From Vicugna vicugna (taxonomy: Eukaryota): a DNA stretch of 64,000 bases. Of the stretch, positions 2,656-61,099 are shown in pieces. The stretch lies in contig MU057930.1 in the NCBI GenBank assembly GCA_013265495.1, positions 1,628,057 to 1,692,056 of the forward strand. The letters run 5' to 3'. Made by a program: the position numbers and the translations under genes. Numbering within the stretch: the first letter of the stretch is position 1; each line of letters starts with the position of its first letter. The notes below the pieces were generated by a model. That model searched no databases. It worked only from the letters and a program-made list of their open reading frames with translations, and was not told where the DNA came from.

Positions 2656-3442
2656 TTCCCAGTAATTCTTAATATCAGGTCTTAGCTGCACATGCGTGTC
2701 TGGGGCAGGGCAAGAGAGTTACTGCATATCCCCAAAGAGGTATTCACAGGACTCACCCGAGTACTGCGCAGCCGTACTCCAAAGGCAGGAGGATGGGATG
2801 CGACCCGAGTCCTCCACAGCATGCCTGGTCCTTATACACCGTGAAGCACCTGCCCTCTGAAGTCTGTGGGAAGAGCCTCAGCCCAGGGAGCGGTCTCTCA
2901 GACACAGAAATAGAAAAGCACGATGAGAGAACAGAGGGAAAATCCTTAGCAAACCTGAAAGCTGGGTGCTAGGCAGTAAACAAGAGAGACTTAGAAACAA
3001 ACAAGTAAACAAGAAAGACATGGAATGAAATCAGCCAATGCTCAGATGTCATTGATGCTGAAAAGAAAGCTTGGAGCATGCTCTCAAAACACGTGAAGGC
3101 ATTAGAAGTTTAAATCCTACCAAAGCTGCTAAACGTTGACGTCATACTGACATAGCCCCACACACTAGGGGCTTAAAAGAAAAAAGAAAAAGGATGGTTT
3201 TCCCCCTCCCAAGTAAAAGATTATATATTTCACATTCTACTATTCTTTTATATAAAATAAACGATAGGCAAACTAAAGATTATGAGATACGCAAAGAATG
3301 AAAGATACGTAACCTATGCTTAAAAGAGAAAATAGTCAATAAAAGCAGACCCACAGATGGTGCAGATAGTACAGCTATCAGACAGGCTATTTAAAAGAAC
3401 TAAGATATATAGACAGACAGAGAAAGAGAGAGGTGGGGGGAG

Positions 3443-13839: not shown

Positions 13840-13974
13840 AGGGGAGGGTGTAGCTCAAGTGGCAGAGCGCATGATTAGCATGCCCGAGGTCCTGGGTTCA
13901 ATCCCCAGTATCTCCTCCAAAAAATACATAAATAAGTATACCTAATTATCTCCCCCCCAAAAAATGTTTTTTAA
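13840..13974 (+). mobile_element. tRNA-Ala-derived SINE (Vic-1-like)
   Basis: A box tagctcaagtgg, B box ggttcaatcc, AGC anticodon-like loop, A-rich tail, TSD aaata(a/g)tatttcg. Confidence 0.9.
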
Positions 13975-19300: not shown

Positions 19301-19623
19301 AAACTGATAAAACTTTATTTGTAAAAGCAGTTGGTAGAGTGGATCTTAGTCTGCATAACCCTTCCCTACGCCTCCTCCAGAGGATGTTAAAAAAATAAAT
19401 TTACAATCTCACCATCACTTGCCTTTATAAGGTCTGAAGGTGGAAAGGGGATTGCTGTATTGATTACAGAGGCTTGAGTCGTACTGACCAGCAAAATGAG
19501 TGCAAAGCATTTCAAAGGAAGTTTTAGAATTTTCTTCCCTGTCCAGGTGGTCTATGCAGACTCTCTCTAATAGGAAAAGAAAGGTCTGTTTTTATCCCTT
19601 AAAGAATCCCATTTTCTCTGCAG

Positions 19624-20310
19624 ATGATGGTGATAATGATGGCGACGATTATAGTAATAGTGATGGTGAGGATGATGGTGATGGTGAGGATGATGGTGAT
19701 GATTACAGTAATAGTAATGTAAACTTTAAACTGATAAAGGTGGAGGATGGTGGTGATAATGATGATGGTGATGATGGTCATGGTGATGATAGTGATGGTG
19801 ATGATTATGATGGTGATGATAATGGTGAGATGATGATGGTGATGATTATAGAAACAGTGATGGTGAGGATGATGGTGATGGTGATGACGATGGTGATGAG
19901 GATGATGGTGATGGTGATGATTATAGTAATAGTGATGGTGAGGATGATGGTGATGGTGATGACGATGGTGATGAGGATGATGGTGATGGTGATGATTATA
20001 GTAATAGTGATGGTGAGGATGGTGGTGATAATGATGAGGATGATGGTGATGACGATGGTGACGATAATGGTGAGGATGATGGTGATGACGATGGTGACGA
20101 TAATGATGGTGATGATAATGATGGTTATGGTGATGATTATACTAATCATGATGGTGAGGATGGTGGTGATGATCATGATGATGGTGATGGTGGTGATGAT
20201 CGTGATGATAATGATGGTGATGGTGATGATTATAGTAATAGTGATGGTGAGGATGGTGGTGATAATGATGATGGTGGTGATGATGGTGGTGACGGTGATA
20301 ATGGTGATGA
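19624..20310. repeat. (GAT/GGT)n trinucleotide low-complexity repeat with ~75-bp higher-order unit
   Basis: Units at 19841, 19916 and 19991 begin gatgattatag... Confidence 0.93.
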
Positions 20311-20896
20311 TTTGGCACAGGAATGTCCATATCTAAGAAATGGGAGATGAGATAATATGAGTAAAAAGTAAAAACCAAAACCAAAACCAAAACAAACGTA
20401 AGATAAATTTAGAAGAAAGGGTTATAATGAATGAGGGAGGATCCCACGCTATTAAACTGCCTGGCACCTAGGAAAGAGCACTATTTAGAGCGTGACAAAA
20501 TGAACTGTGCTCTTAATGTGTCTTTTCCTGTGTGTTTGGGCTTCTTGTCTTTCTCAGTGTCATTTACAATCCCCAGATGTGAAAGTCGGTGAACATTTGT
20601 ATTCCAACCTCAAAACCTTTCTGCTGAGCGCATTTCCATGTGTTCTCAAGCAAACCGCTCATCTGAAGCACAGAATCTCACAGTATTCCTTGAGTGAGTC
20701 ACCGAGAACTTGAAGAAATTCTCTCTCCCCACCATGTCGATTATCCTCAGGGTTTTGGGAAAGTTGCTTCTCTCTGAGTGGACACTGGGATTGTAACATC
20801 GACTGGAGGACCTAAGAGGACATTAAGCTAGAGTTGAGTTAAATATTTACACTGATAGACACATGCGTGAGGTGAAGAGGTTCAAATGACCCCCAC

Positions 20897-27174: not shown

Positions 27175-27868
27175 ACGTAGGCAGAACATTCTGTGATATA
27201 AATCACAGCAATAATTTTTTTTTTTGGATCCGTCTCCTTAAGCAACAAGGTGATTTATAGTATCTGGTCTTACATTCAGGTCTTTAATACAGTTTTAGTT
27301 TATTTTTGTACATGGTGCTCGAGAATGATCTATCTTCATTCTTTTCCTTGTAGCCTTCTTGTTTTCCCAACACCACTTCTAGAAGAGACTGTCTTTTCTC
27401 TACTGTACGTAGGCAGAACATTCTGTGATATAAATCACAGCAATAATTTTTTTTTTTGGATCCGTCTCCTTAAGCAACAAGGTGCTTTATAGTATCTGGT
27501 CTTACATTCAGGTCTTTAATACAGTTTGAGTTTATTTTTGTACATGGTGCTCGAGAATGACCTAACTTCATTCTTTTCCTTGTAGCCTTCTGGTTTTCCC
27601 AACACCACTTCTAGAAGAGACTGTCTTTTCTCTACTGTATGTAGGCAGAACATTCTATGAAATAAATCACAGCAATAATTTTTTTTTGGATCCGTCTCCT
27701 TAAGCAACAAGGTGATTTATAGTATCTGGTCTTACATTCAGGTCTTTAATACAGTTTTAGTTTATTTTTGTACATGGTGCTCGAGAATGATCTATCTTCA
27801 TTCTTTTCCTTGTAGCCTTCTTGTTTTCCCAACACCACTTCTAGAAGAGACTGTCTTTTCTCTACTGT
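27175..27868. repeat. Tandem triplication of a ~232-bp L1-derived unit
   Basis: Units start at 27175, 27407 and 27639. Confidence 0.93.
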
Positions 27869-33714: not shown

Positions 33715-33878
33715 TAAGACTATTTATTTATTTATGTATTACTGCATTATTTATTTTATTGTGGTGGTGAGGGGGACGTAATTCGGTTTATTTGTTTTTA
33801 GAGGAGGCACTGGGGATTGAACCCAGGACCTCGTGCATGCTAAGCATGCGCTCTACCCCTTGAGCTATACCCTCCCCC
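33715..33878 (-). mobile_element. tRNA-Ala-derived SINE (Vic-1-like)
   Basis: ggggattgaacccaggacctcgtgcatgctaagcatgcgctctac; 16-bp TSD caggaagacggctttt. Confidence 0.92.
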
Positions 33879-40116: not shown

Positions 40117-40279
40117 GATCTATCATTTTTTTCTATCTATCTATCCATCCATCTTTCCATCCATCCAACCTACCTATCGATCTATCGATCCATCCATCCA
40201 TGCTATCTACCTATCCATCAATCCTATCTACCTACCTATTTATCTATGTAATCCGTCTATCTCTCTGTCCACCCATCTA

Positions 40280-40318
<39 letters not shown>

Positions 40319-40425
40319 CATCCATCTTTCCATGCATCATCCATCCATCCAATCTGTCTCTCTATGTATGTATGTATCCATCCGTCCATCCATCCATCTT
40401 GTCTGTCTGTCTATCTATCTATCTT
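40117..40425. repeat. (TCTA)n/(TCCA)n microsatellite
   Basis: Direct reading. Confidence 0.93.
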
Positions 40426-48844: not shown

Positions 48845-49790
48845 AATATACTGTATATAACCACAGTATATGCCATATGCTATATATTTTATATACTCTA
48901 TACTGTAAAATGTGTACTATATACCAGGATATGTTTCACAATATATAGTATATGCTGCATAATAATATACCATATACCACAGTATATACAGTGCAGTATA
49001 TACTATAGATGGTTTATGCTGCCTGACAACATACTGCATACCACAGTATATAAGGTACACTGTATACTACACATGGCCTATGTTGCATAATAATATACTG
49101 TATACCACAGTATATATGGTATACTATATTCTACACATGGTCTATGCTGTATGACAATATACCATATACCACAGTACATACGCTACACTATATACCACAG
49201 ATGGTCTATTTTGCATAATAATACATGGTATACCACAGTATATATGGTACAGTATATGCTACACATGGTCTATGTTGTATGACAATATATTGCATACCAT
49301 AGCATATACAGTACACTATATAATGTATATAGTATATGCTGTATACAAGTACACCATATACCACAGTATATATGGTACACTATGTACTACACATGATCTA
49401 CGTTGCATGAAAATTCACTGTATACCACAGTATATATGGTATACTATATACTATATATAGCATATGTGGTAAAAACGTACACTGTGTATACCATAGCATA
49501 TACAGTACCCTATATAATGTATATAGTATATGCTGTATACAAGTACACCGTATACCACAGTATATATGGTACACTATGTACTACACATGGTCTACATTGC
49601 ATGACAATATACTGTATACCACAGTATATATGGTATACTATATACTATATATAGTATATGCAGTAAAGACGTGTAGTGTGTATACCACAGCATGTATGGT
49701 ACACTCTATACTGTGTATAGTAAATACTGTATAAAACATTTTGTATAGTAGAGGACATACTGCATAGTATATACTGTATATACATAGAGA
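48845..49790. repeat. AT-rich minisatellite, 64-bp unit
   Basis: acca(c/t)ag anchor at 48976, 49040, 49104, 49168, 49232, 49296, 49360, 49424, 49490, 49554, 49618 and 49684. Confidence 0.9.
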
Positions 49791-51979: not shown

Positions 51980-52316
51980 TCAAGAGCTTCTAAAGTCTTC
52001 GATCTATAATGCTTAAACTACTGTTCACTGCCAGATCTTCTGTAGAGACCCTCTTTCTGCCTATTTCATCCACCTCTCCCCACACAGAACCCAAACTGAA
52101 ATGGTCCTTGATGGATGAGCACCTGATTTCTACTGCGTGGTCAGGAATCAAGAGCTTCTAAAGTCTTCGATCTATAATGCTTATAAACTACTGTTCACTG
52201 CCAGATCTTCTGTAGAGACCCTCTTTCTGCCTATTTCATCCACCTCTCCCCACACGGAACCCAAACTGAAATGGTCCTTGATGGATGAGCACCTGATTTC
52301 TACTGCGTGGTCAGGA
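51980..52316. repeat. Near-perfect ~168-bp tandem duplication
   Basis: Copies at 51980-52147 and 52148-52316. Confidence 0.93.
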
Positions 52317-54269: not shown

Positions 54270-54399
54270 TTTTTTAATCTTTTTGTGGGGAGGGGTAATT
54301 AGGGTTACTTATTTACTTTTGATGGACGTACTGGGGATTGAACCCAGGACCTTGTGCATGCTCAGCATGCGCTCTATCACTGAGCTACACCCTCCTCCC
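54270..54399 (-). mobile_element. Vic-1-like SINE
   Basis: tRNA-Ala-like head; TSD cc(a/g)tgggggtcttttt. Confidence 0.88.
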
Positions 54400-56321: not shown

Positions 56322-57275
<954 letters not shown>

Positions 57276-58527
57276 TCAGCACCTCTTTCTTTCATTTTCG
57301 TCTCATTCTCCCTCTCCGCCCCCCACTGGACACCGGTTTTATGGGATGTTCTTACACTACACACACACACAAGCACACAAAGAGTTTAAAAAAATGAAAC
57401 AGCATTTACACTTTAGCTGAGGAGGTAAAAACATGCAATTGCTTTATCTTTCCTCGATTTAGTGTGATGTTAGCATCTCCATCCCCAGATGTTATAAATA
57501 AAACATCTCAGGGCAATCACATCCCCCATTCCCTAAAAATATGCTTCACAGCCATAAGAGGTCAAAAGCCATTTTGTCTCACTGGCAAAATCAGGTGCCA
57601 CTTTCTGATGAGGAAAAAATAATCAGCTGAAATCACTTTAGGAGTACAAAATCCAGAATTTATTTTTTATTTCCACCCTCTCTGTATTGAAGGTATTAAA
57701 ATGTGCAATTAAAATAAACTAAATTAGCTATTCCTAAAGAAGTCATCATTTGAATGTCCCGTTGAAACATTTTTTTTTTAAATTAACTTCAACATTGCAT
57801 CCGCTCAAAGCCCAAGACTTTTGTACAATTTATTTTGCCACATTTTAAACATGTCTCTTGGATGAGAAAGGTGAAAACTCTGGGGCCGTTTTAGGAGTAA
57901 AAATTTAGGAGTAAAATTCTGTGTAGCTTAAGATTTTTCTGTCAGATCAGTCTAGCAGATGGGTGTCTGAAAGTAAACAAAAGTCAGATTTTAACTACCC
58001 CGGGACAAGACATGATGGGCTATAGAAAATCGTAGCATCCTCTTCCTTGTCTCTTCCCACCACTTCCTTGAACTCAAGCTTCGGTGCCTCCTGAGTAGCT
58101 GGGAGAACAAAGCACTGATCTGGAAGTCGAGAAGTTCATGCCCTGTCGACTTCAAGCCACCAAAGATGAAGAAAACTCGACTGCCATCAGGAAGACGTGG
58201 TTCTAAAGAGCAGAGGACTGCCCAAAGGTACACCCGAGACCGAGACTTTACATTGACCTGGCTATGCCCACCAAACTCATCATCAAACTCATGTGGGGGC
58301 CAATTTCTCAATGTTTTGGATTCTGCTGGAAACACACAAGTATTGACTTGTGCGTCTGGTTCTAAAGAGGGCTGTGTCAAAGCACCTGAAGGAAACAATG
58401 TCAGTATTTGATCTGTTGAAGACCTTCATAAAATAAGACAATCAGAATTAGAAACATGCTGCTAGAAGTTACGTATTTTTCTCTCTATCTCTCTCTCTAA
58501 CAACAATTGGCCATGATGGAGGTAGCA

Positions 58528-58559
<32 letters not shown>

Positions 58560-58736
58560 ATGCTTGTTAGGGAAGGAATATAACTTGTGATAAAATTCAA
58601 AAAATTTAAGGAAAAAAATCACCTACAATTCATACTAGAAGAGTTACTTTAATAGTTTCGTATCATTCTTTTCTTGGTTCTTTATCTACTGTGGGTCTGA
58701 TGCATGTCACAGTGGCCAGTATCTGCACATTATACT

Positions 58737-58870
58737 GATTTCACAATTAAGGAACTCCCCTGTTTCCTCAGGATTGGAGGATTGTCTGGAATAACATCCC
58801 TGTCCGTGAAAGGACCAAAGGAAATGTGGTACCCGGCCAGGGTGATGGTCTGCTGGGTAAGCTCTTTACA
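58737..58870 (-). pseudogene. Degenerate partial duplicate of the 790-bp NLGN4X exon, lying in the preceding intron
   Basis: Aligns to 56859-56993 with 32 substitutions and 1 gap over 135 nt. Translates [45 protein letters not shown] versus [45 protein letters not shown]. Confidence 0.85.
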
Positions 58871-59782
58871 CTGTGTCTCCCAGGCTCATGCGTATCTTAA
58901 GCACAGTTCTTAAAATGAACTGTTGTTCCTTTGAGTAAACGCACGTGCCTCTTATAACAGTCTTGTCTTTTTTAGCCTTTTAGCTTTTCATTTCCTTCTT
59001 TGCTATGAGAATGCTGCGGTGAACATCTCCATGAAAACATCTTTTTTTTCCCCATGTGTATGTTGACTCCATTAACCTCTGTTGCTCGAAGTGCCATTCC
59101 TAAGGCCAACGGTCTGGACTATGTTTGTAATTCTTGATTCTATTGCTGGGTTGCTTTGGAAGAACTTCTCTTTAGAAATGAATTCACATGCAAGGCATTG
59201 TCCCACAGCAGAGTCATTTCTGATCTATTGATTTAAGTAATTAACATCCTTGCCCCAGTTAGCTGGGGCTGACAGGTGTTCAATCACTCCTGAAGGTGGT
59301 CCTGACTGCTTTGTTAATCGACAAACGCGACTATATCCACGGAGATGTGGGAACGTCTAGGTATTTCCTGAAATGCTATAGGCATCACTATTACCACAAT
59401 GATCTGATTTTCTCACTTTTCCCTTTCCTTAAAATAAAGGATGAACACAAACATAAGCCCTGCATTCTGCCTCTCCTCACCCTTACTATGACATCAAGAA
59501 TCAAGAAGTTCAGATTTCCGAAGACTTGAAGATCACTGTATCTTGCTAATGGAGAAATCAAGGTGCAGAAGGAGTCAGCAACTTTCCCACCATAGTGAGG
59601 GAAGCGAGAAAAATAAAATAAGGCGCTGTCACTCGGCGTGATTATACTCCCCCCCCTTTTATTTTTAGCATGTTTATAGCACTTTAAAGAAAGATACTAC
59701 AAGACTCTTAAAAGAAAAATAATTCCTTTAAAGTTGCAAGTGTTTTGATATGAACGGTTCAAATAGAGGTGGTGCCATTCTT

Positions 59783-59921
59783 TTGGGGGGAGGTAATTAG
59801 TTTTTGTTTGTTTATTTATTCATTCATTCATTTATTATTTTTAAATGGAGATGCTGGGGATTGAACCCAGGACCTCGTGCATGCTAAACACATGCTCTAC
59901 CGCTGAGCTATAGCCATCCGC
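59783..59921 (-). mobile_element. Vic-1-like SINE
   Basis: ggggattgaacccaggacctcgtgcatgcta; degenerate TSD aga(g/a)gtggtgc. Confidence 0.85.
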
Positions 59922-60469
59922 AGAAGTGGTGCAATGCTTAAAGCAACCAATGACACAGAAGGAAATGTAACGTGACCTTGATGGTTTACATTGTTATGAC
60001 AAATATTCACCTGTGCCCGCCAAGGGATCCCAGGGCTACATTTTCTTGTTTTGTTTTGCTTTTTGTTTCATTTTTGAGAGGAGAGACAAAAGGAAGTTAC
60101 CACGGTACTTCCAGACCAACTGCATCGAATCCCTGTTGATATTTCTTTTAAATCTCTCACTGGACATAGCTGAGAACCTCCATCACCAATGACCAAAGAC
60201 TTACCCTGAGGTAGCTTGCAACAAAAAAAAGGGACTTTATAAACACATGGTTACAAGCTTTCTTTATGATGAAATCTACTGATCTTCAGCCATCATCTGC
60301 GTACTGTTTTTCTTTCATATTACTTGTCCCAAGTTGAAAATAGAAGTTAACAAAGTTTAAAGATGACCGAAGAAAGTCGGAAAGGCAAAAGTAAGGGGTT
60401 GGCGTGTCCAAAGAAGTTACGTTGTAATTATTGTAAGCAACGCCGACCATCATGAATCTCACTGAGAAA

Positions 60470-60688
60470 ATATATATTGTTCAAATGTTAATAATACTGT
60501 ATTGCTACTTAAAAGTTTCTAAGAGAGGAAATCTTAAAATTCTCAGCTGAAAGAAAAAAAAATTGAATCTAAATGGTGAGGAATGTTAACGAGACTGACC
60601 CTGGTGACTGTTTTGCAACATAGATGTATATCAAATCGTTACGCCTGGAACTAACATAATGTTGCCTGTCCATTATACCTCAGTTTTA
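60470..60688 (+). mobile_element. Old L1MB-like 3' end
   Basis: gttaataatactgtattg...tcttaaaattctca...tatcaaatc...aatgttg..tgtccattatacctca. Confidence 0.6.
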
Positions 60689-60712
60689 AACGTTAGGAAG
60701 AAAGCTGACTCA

Positions 60713-61099
<387 letters not shown>

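Follow-up and report, generated by a model that had tools for sequence, protein, structure and literature searches.

In the window, the whole 64,000-nt stretch of DNA analysed here, an intron of the neuroligin-4 gene holds a decayed, internal copy of about 135 nt of the exon that follows it. The copy has the marks of a neutral pseudogenic fragment, and a templated insertion from DNA repair, dead on arrival, is on balance the best explanation for it. The copying can be placed between two single-base changes of the live exon, a date bracket that is new here.

An exon fragment in the splice site B intron of NLGN4

By its sequence the host gene is neuroligin-4, the NLGN4X orthologue: the peptide of its 790-nt exon scores 610 bits against the PDB NLGN4X chain and 537 bits or less against NL1-3, and the exon sizes of 186 and 790 nt agree with those in the accessible text of PMC7182215. 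Coordinates of the features discussed are collected in Table 1.

Table 1. NLGN4 features, copy, dating sites and adjoining repeat in the window.
Feature	Position	Strand	Remarks
NLGN4 790-nt exon	56359..57148	-	260/262 residues as in PDB NLGN4X chain; GC3 218/262
Source segment within live exon	56859..56993	-	45 codons, YREL...NYD
Host intron, 3719 nt, phase 1	57149..60867	-	junction same as that of neuroligin-1 insert B
Decayed copy (790-nt exon, bases 156-290)	58736..58870	-	1-nt deletion; without native splice sites
Dating site 1: T of TCC (Ser), common to copy and exon (56945)	58822	-	Ala outside Scrotifera
Dating site 2: A in copy (AAA, ancestral Lys), G in exon (56989, Arg)	58866	-	
Old L1-like remnant (probable)	58893..59099	- (sense of gene)	stops some 20-35 nt short of the copy's 5' end; support moderate and post hoc
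NLGN4 186-nt exon, upstream of host intron	60868..61053	-	

When the exon region was compared with the intron by blastn, exon segment 56858-56988 matched intron positions 58736-58865 at 77.1% identity over 131 nt (E 6.7e-24), and the next best match had an E value of only 0.12. The Smith-Waterman score of copy against source was 139, whereas 200 shuffles averaged 27.5 and did not exceed 39. The original prediction of a copy of about 135 nt, lying in the same orientation some 1.9 kb upstream of its source, is thus borne out, with an offset of 1877-1878 nt. Its hand counts proved exact: over 135 nt there are 32 substitutions at 134 aligned sites, distributed over codon positions 1, 2 and 3 as 5/45, 9/45 and 18/44 (copy against exon, unpolarised), plus one 1-nt deletion, which lies in a run of G. 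From exon to copy, 21 changes run from G/C to A/T versus 8 from A/T to G/C, the drift towards A/T that had been noted, and the CpG count is 2 in the copy versus 9 in the source.

The limits first proposed for the copy also stand. A further 15-nt match, which would extend it to 58885 (57010 in the exon), was equalled by 46 of 150 shuffles and was rejected as not significant, and anchored extension beyond the limits failed on both sides. The copy is therefore an internal exon piece that includes neither exon splice site, and it lies 1587 nt ahead of the intron's acceptor. Beyond the copy, no match of the 790-nt exon was found elsewhere in the whole window by blastn or with a 4-sequence profile, nor any extra match of the 186-nt exon or the last exon. 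Scanned along diagonals at offsets of 300-4000 nt, the region 55.5-60.9 kb showed no other collinear remnant, except four marginal low-complexity diagonals.

A metagenome scan yielded 49 candidate stretches that resolved into 10 loci, none of them mammalian NLGN4. Only one (L001) has the whole intron, of 1850 nt; it is a bird or reptile NLGN4, with an exon peptide that also occurs unchanged in NLGN4 entries from birds, turtles and crocodilians, and its intron is without the copy (score 32, background level). The copy reads QQTIT and HISF as the window exon does, where NL1 and NL3 differ, and at 11 sites copy and window exon agree and both differ from L001. These matches point to the local NLGN4 exon, and not a paralogue, as the origin of the copy.

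The words of 56359-61054 were also compared with 24 rows of sequencing runs. In 14 of these, which are DNA or untyped and have four organism labels, 86-91% of the words are present; this speaks against an assembly artefact for that stretch as a whole, the copy itself not being addressed by this figure. Six RNA or probable-RNA runs have a word share of 0.11-0.22, close to the proportion of the stretch that is exon, and so bear neither for nor against inclusion of the copy in RNA. As a side observation, other neuroligin genes have an intron within this exon at about ILMEQG (window equivalent 56881/56882; 410-497 in locus L007). This is the place of the 1-nt deletion in the copy. The copy runs past it, so the agreement looks like coincidence within a run of G.

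Two coding changes bracket the copying

The copy encodes Lys (AAA) where the window exon has Arg (AGA), and Lys was suspected to be the ancestral state. The PDB NLGN4X chain likewise has Lys. We surveyed neuroligin proteins through the best 120 of 1527 matches and 59 further cluster members, eight of which are without the segment; the named rows include no perissodactyl or camelid. Within this survey, Arg in Y(K/R)EL is confined to the named ruminants and the window, and pig and whales have Lys, in agreement with that suspicion. At HI(S/A)FG, the named proteins of the same survey have Ser in bats, carnivores, pangolin, whales, pig and ruminants, and Ala in shrew, desman, primates, rodents, tree shrew, elephant shrew, marsupials, birds and reptiles. 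Among the named proteins, the Ala-to-Ser change cleanly separates Scrotifera from the rest.

Since the copy has TCC (Ser) at the first of these sites, it would postdate the Ala-to-Ser change on the Scrotifera stem, and since it has AAA (Lys) at the second, it would predate the Lys-to-Arg change on this lineage. The probable order is thus Ala-to-Ser, copy, Lys-to-Arg, with each bound carried by one base. From the divergence of the copy, we estimate the chance that a bound is wrong at a few percent for a convergent G-to-T change and about 10% for a reverting G-to-A change. With laurasiatherian orders splitting 81.6-73.6 Mya in the accessible text of bioRxiv 10.1101/2022.08.10.503388 (PMC3243735 is a further source on dates), the copy is probably younger than about 82 million years. 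A minimum age can be estimated from the copy's own decay, as its divergence at codon positions 1-2, with the K/R site left out, is 0.16 (95% interval 0.085-0.28). At a substitution rate near 2e-9 per site per year, this corresponds to an age of at least 40 million years.

The human gene should consequently lack the copy. More broadly, it is predicted to occur in some bats, carnivores or hoofed mammals, and to be absent in human, mouse, shrew and elephant. At most, its presence or absence could thereby be scored as a single character of mammal ancestry within a fast radiation. The window's last exon scores 261-269 against ruminants and 278-280 against whales and carnivores, by which the window does not belong to a ruminant. 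A camelid is its probable source, given the short tRNA-derived SINE at 59831-59915 and the four organism labels of the matching sequencing runs. Should this hold, the Lys-to-Arg change at 56989 would have had two separate origins, one in ruminants and one on the window lineage.

Origin of the copy

Taken alone, the copy is very probably without function, and given a dead copy a repair route is fairly probable. Such an event would have begun with a germline DNA break within the host intron. The broken end would have switched template and briefly copied about 135 nt of the neighbouring exon, 1.9 kb off on the same molecule, before being rejoined by end joining. Because the patch would be the middle of an exon with neither splice site, it would be spliced out with the intron and decay neutrally; it would do nothing while preserving an old state of the exon (Lys and a lower third-position GC).

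A template switch in break repair fits best with a copy that is short, isolated, internal, on the same strand and 1.9 kb from its source. No duplicated flanks lie beside the copy. The flanks contain no poly(A) (the longest A run is 4), no AATAAA within 96 nt (there is one ATTAAA) and no shared word of more than 6 nt, and no target-site duplication was seen in them. Divergence of about 16% would have erased microhomology, target-site duplications and short flanks, so that the route cannot be read from the junctions. In human meiotic-break data, template-switch insertions and an excess of variants occur within the resection range of about 2 kb (accessible text of PMC7615360). Templated insertions made by template switching or polymerase-theta end joining, as described in the accessible parts of PMC7615360 and PMC5110952, resemble the copy in being short genomic copies that lack retroposition marks and have their template within about 2 kb. 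They differ in being polymorphic, whereas the copy is ancient and fixed or near fixed, with junction signatures that are no longer readable.

The next candidate, already unlikely, is the remnant of a tandem duplication, in which about 1.9 kb or more of intron and the 5' part of the exon would have been doubled by unequal crossover or replication slippage and then trimmed by deletions, leaving a copy that is also dead. The short distance and shared orientation suit such an event, and side-by-side duplications make up 63% of short insertions in the accessible text of PMC7615360, a figure for human hotspots and much shorter events. However, the exon's first 155 nt, its acceptor and the duplicated intron are untraced beside the copy, and deletion would have had to remove the rest of the duplicate almost exactly.

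Less probable still is an RNA-templated patch, a piece of NLGN4 pre-mRNA or mRNA reverse-transcribed by the L1 machinery into the gene's own intron as a class 1 or class 2 templated sequence insertion, again dead. Its size would fit the 73-414 bp of experimental templated insertions given in the accessible text of PMC5110952, the source is exonic, and a same-sense L1-like remnant adjoins the copy's 5' end. Against it, the copy spans no exon junction, and the poly(A), AATAAA and target-site duplication that were not seen would be expected of it, although age could have erased them. The donors of templated sequence insertions are moreover distant in that same text, whereas the donor here is local.

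Intragenic partial exon duplications and intronic pseudoexons form a general class, which the copy resembles in being an exon-like sequence in an adjacent intron of the same gene. Unlike members of that class, it is an internal fragment with neither splice site and no duplicated intron flanks. The open literature that we searched, including the accessible text of the NLGN4 evolution papers PMC7182215 and PMC9005811, holds no description of the copy. Under the favoured repair reading, the copy adds one more case to a kind of event that is common. If dead, it is of little importance beyond being a dated snapshot of the NLGN4 exon; its importance would be greater only if RNA showed regulated inclusion.

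Splicing potential at splice site B

The host intron had been placed at neuroligin splice site B, and this placement is correct: neuroligin-1 insert B sits exactly at the exon junction of the host intron (PDB 5OJK). This insert has 9 residues and is described as unique to neuroligin-1 (PMC11790763), and its effect on neurexin binding is described in PMC9222181. Beyond the shared junction, the likeness ends. The insert lies directly at the junction, whereas 1997 nt separate the copy from the donor and its sequence is unrelated to that of the insert; the copy is tied to splice site B by position only. Neuroligin-1 insert B arises via an alternative donor.

The original prediction also allowed for the relic of an alternative or poison exon, and this part found no support, although the remainder of its interpretation, an old, local, probably dead copy with an ancestral Lys, did. 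That the copy acts as a low-level poison exon or decoy tuning NLGN4 output, in the manner of mouse Nlgn4 exon 1b, would surprise us greatly. An AG at 58872-71 and a GT at 58735-34 do bound the copy almost exactly and give G|TG followed at once by the stop TAA, as first described. Yet the AG has a pyrimidine fraction of 0.35, a value reached or surpassed by 85% of the 256 AGs in the intron, while the real acceptors reach 0.65 and 0.95; the polypyrimidine tract that had been reported missing is indeed missing. The GT has 3 of 9 consensus matches, as compared to 7 of 9 in the real downstream donor. By these crude scores, both sites are at intron background. Among the AG-GT pairs around the copy, 14 of 143 would give an open in-frame insert, all via weak sites.

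Protein data agree with this picture. Of 161 predicted NLGN4 proteins with both anchors, none has a copy-derived insert at the junction, although a poison exon would not be expected to show in predicted proteins. Short inserts at the HYSE-GLFQ splice-site-B junction do occur in 10 of the 161, where the donor is read through or the acceptor is shifted. In several predictions (whale, bear and birds), the 790-nt exon is extended into the equivalent of 57149-57180, the roughly 30 intronic bases ahead of its acceptor, which can be aligned to 3164-3192 of the bird or reptile locus L001. Both the short inserts and these extensions are probably gene-model noise. An HMMER search of 1.84 billion representatives returned 36 matches (35 neuroligins and one unrelated protein), none of which is a copy-type protein; the highest count of copy-type residues, 3 of 14 sites, was in a paralogue fragment. 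Pfam did not recognise the copy's frame, and word-index protein searches with its 51-codon frame gave no match, but as they missed NLGN4 itself too, they are uninformative.

Mouse Nlgn4 does have a poison exon elsewhere, exon 1b, which shares with the idea the same gene and an early stop upon inclusion (accessible text of PMC7182215). It differs in following the first coding exon, in having conserved splice sites and in having been shown by qPCR, whereas the copy has weak sites and is known from DNA alone. The broader version of this proposal is just as improbable. It holds that a shared ancestor of several scrotiferan orders acquired the copy, at the junction regulated in neuroligin-1 by insert B, and that bats, carnivores and hoofed mammals, unlike primates and rodents, have retained it as a weak poison exon, coupled to NMD, or a splicing decoy that lowers or tunes NLGN4. 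If it were true, presence or absence of the copy would also be a rare genomic marker of branching order inside Scrotifera. The copy never carried native splice sites, and the substitutions described below give no sign of coding constraint.

Neutral decay of the copy and change in the live exon

The raw third-position excess (18/44 versus 14/90, Fisher p 0.002) might suggest that the copy was once under coding constraint. Polarised by L001, a single distant sauropsid that is the sole outgroup DNA and leaves small numbers, the 32 differences divide into 20 that are copy-specific, 8 at which the copy agrees with the outgroup and 4 that are different in all three. The copy-specific changes fall evenly over the codon positions (5/8/7; chi-square p 0.70, or p 0.32 with the 4 ambiguous sites added); 13 of them are non-synonymous and 7 synonymous, in addition to the frameshift. 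This evenness, with 13 of 20 changes non-synonymous, argues for neutral decay with no codon pattern of the copy's own. On the copy branch, the non-synonymous and synonymous proportions are 13/106 and 7/29 (Fisher p 0.14), a ratio not significantly different from 1 but below it. The 8 sites at which copy and outgroup agree comprise 7 synonymous differences and the K/R site, and include 7 third-position differences.

In neutral simulations with rate parameters that are our own assumptions, the 5/9/18 skew was reached in 7-12% of 150 runs when the exon also changed synonymously at the copy's rate, and in 0-5% of runs with copy decay alone. Because the raw skew lies in the tail of these simulations, faster synonymous change in the live exon is needed, which is the simplest fix, and the third-position excess appears to reflect mostly synonymous change in the live exon. 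That the fragment was instead once translated as a duplicate exon (mutually exclusive or an internal repeat), for a time under protein constraint, and then died is hardly credible: the third-position excess and its incomplete match by simulation speak for it, but the polarised changes are even, 7 of the third-position differences have the outgroup state in the copy, splice sites homologous to those of the exon are absent, and a protein with the insert would have part of its folded esterase-like domain twice.

Neutral decay therefore describes the copy best by its substitutions, and its comparison with the source hints that the live exon gained third-position G+C after copying. Third-position G/C stands at 89% for the source, against 57% for the copy and 51% for L001; human NLGN4X cDNA has a GC3 of 66.5% over a different span (PMC7182215 Table 1, in the accessible text). 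All 8 exon-side changes run from A/T to G/C (p 0.008). We rejected this count as proof of GC-biased conversion, as source third positions are already 89% G/C and homoplasy with the outgroup is likely. GC-biased conversion may nevertheless act on a pseudoautosomal NLGN4. The gene is pseudoautosomal in cattle, sheep and goat (PMC9449390), and the alpaca pseudoautosomal boundary lies beyond SHROOM2 in PMC7830431, the main text of which does not name NLGN4.

Surroundings of the copy

The remnant next to the copy, like the repeat pieces elsewhere in the window, is one that we take to be L1. Of five window repeat pieces compared with 58893-59099, three beat at least 499 of 500 shuffles and two did not. 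A profile of nine window L1-like pieces gave no match in the intron at E <=5, and Pfam gives these nine pieces no L1 label. A continuation of the remnant beyond the far side of the copy was considered and rejected, the best E value being only 0.84.

The window also holds four copies of a short tRNA-derived SINE (59831-59915, 33787-33872, 54309-54392 and 13846-13933), pairwise 12-20% apart, which presumably resembles the camelid vic-1. The name vic-1 appears in PMC3531059. In the intron, only the tRNA-like SINE passes its Rfam gathering score, and two SCARNA7 matches fall far below theirs. An assembly gap of 125 N lies near 25.4-25.5 kb. Near-perfect tandem repeats at 27175-27868 (232 nt x3, 96%) and 51980-52316 (170 nt x2, 98%) are either recent duplications or assembly artefacts. 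Long degenerate simple-repeat or minisatellite arrays lie in and behind the gene (44-818, 19623-20311, 40132-40424 and 48942-49733), and recall the intronic repeat gain of pseudoautosomal rodent NLGN4 described in the accessible text of PMC7182215.
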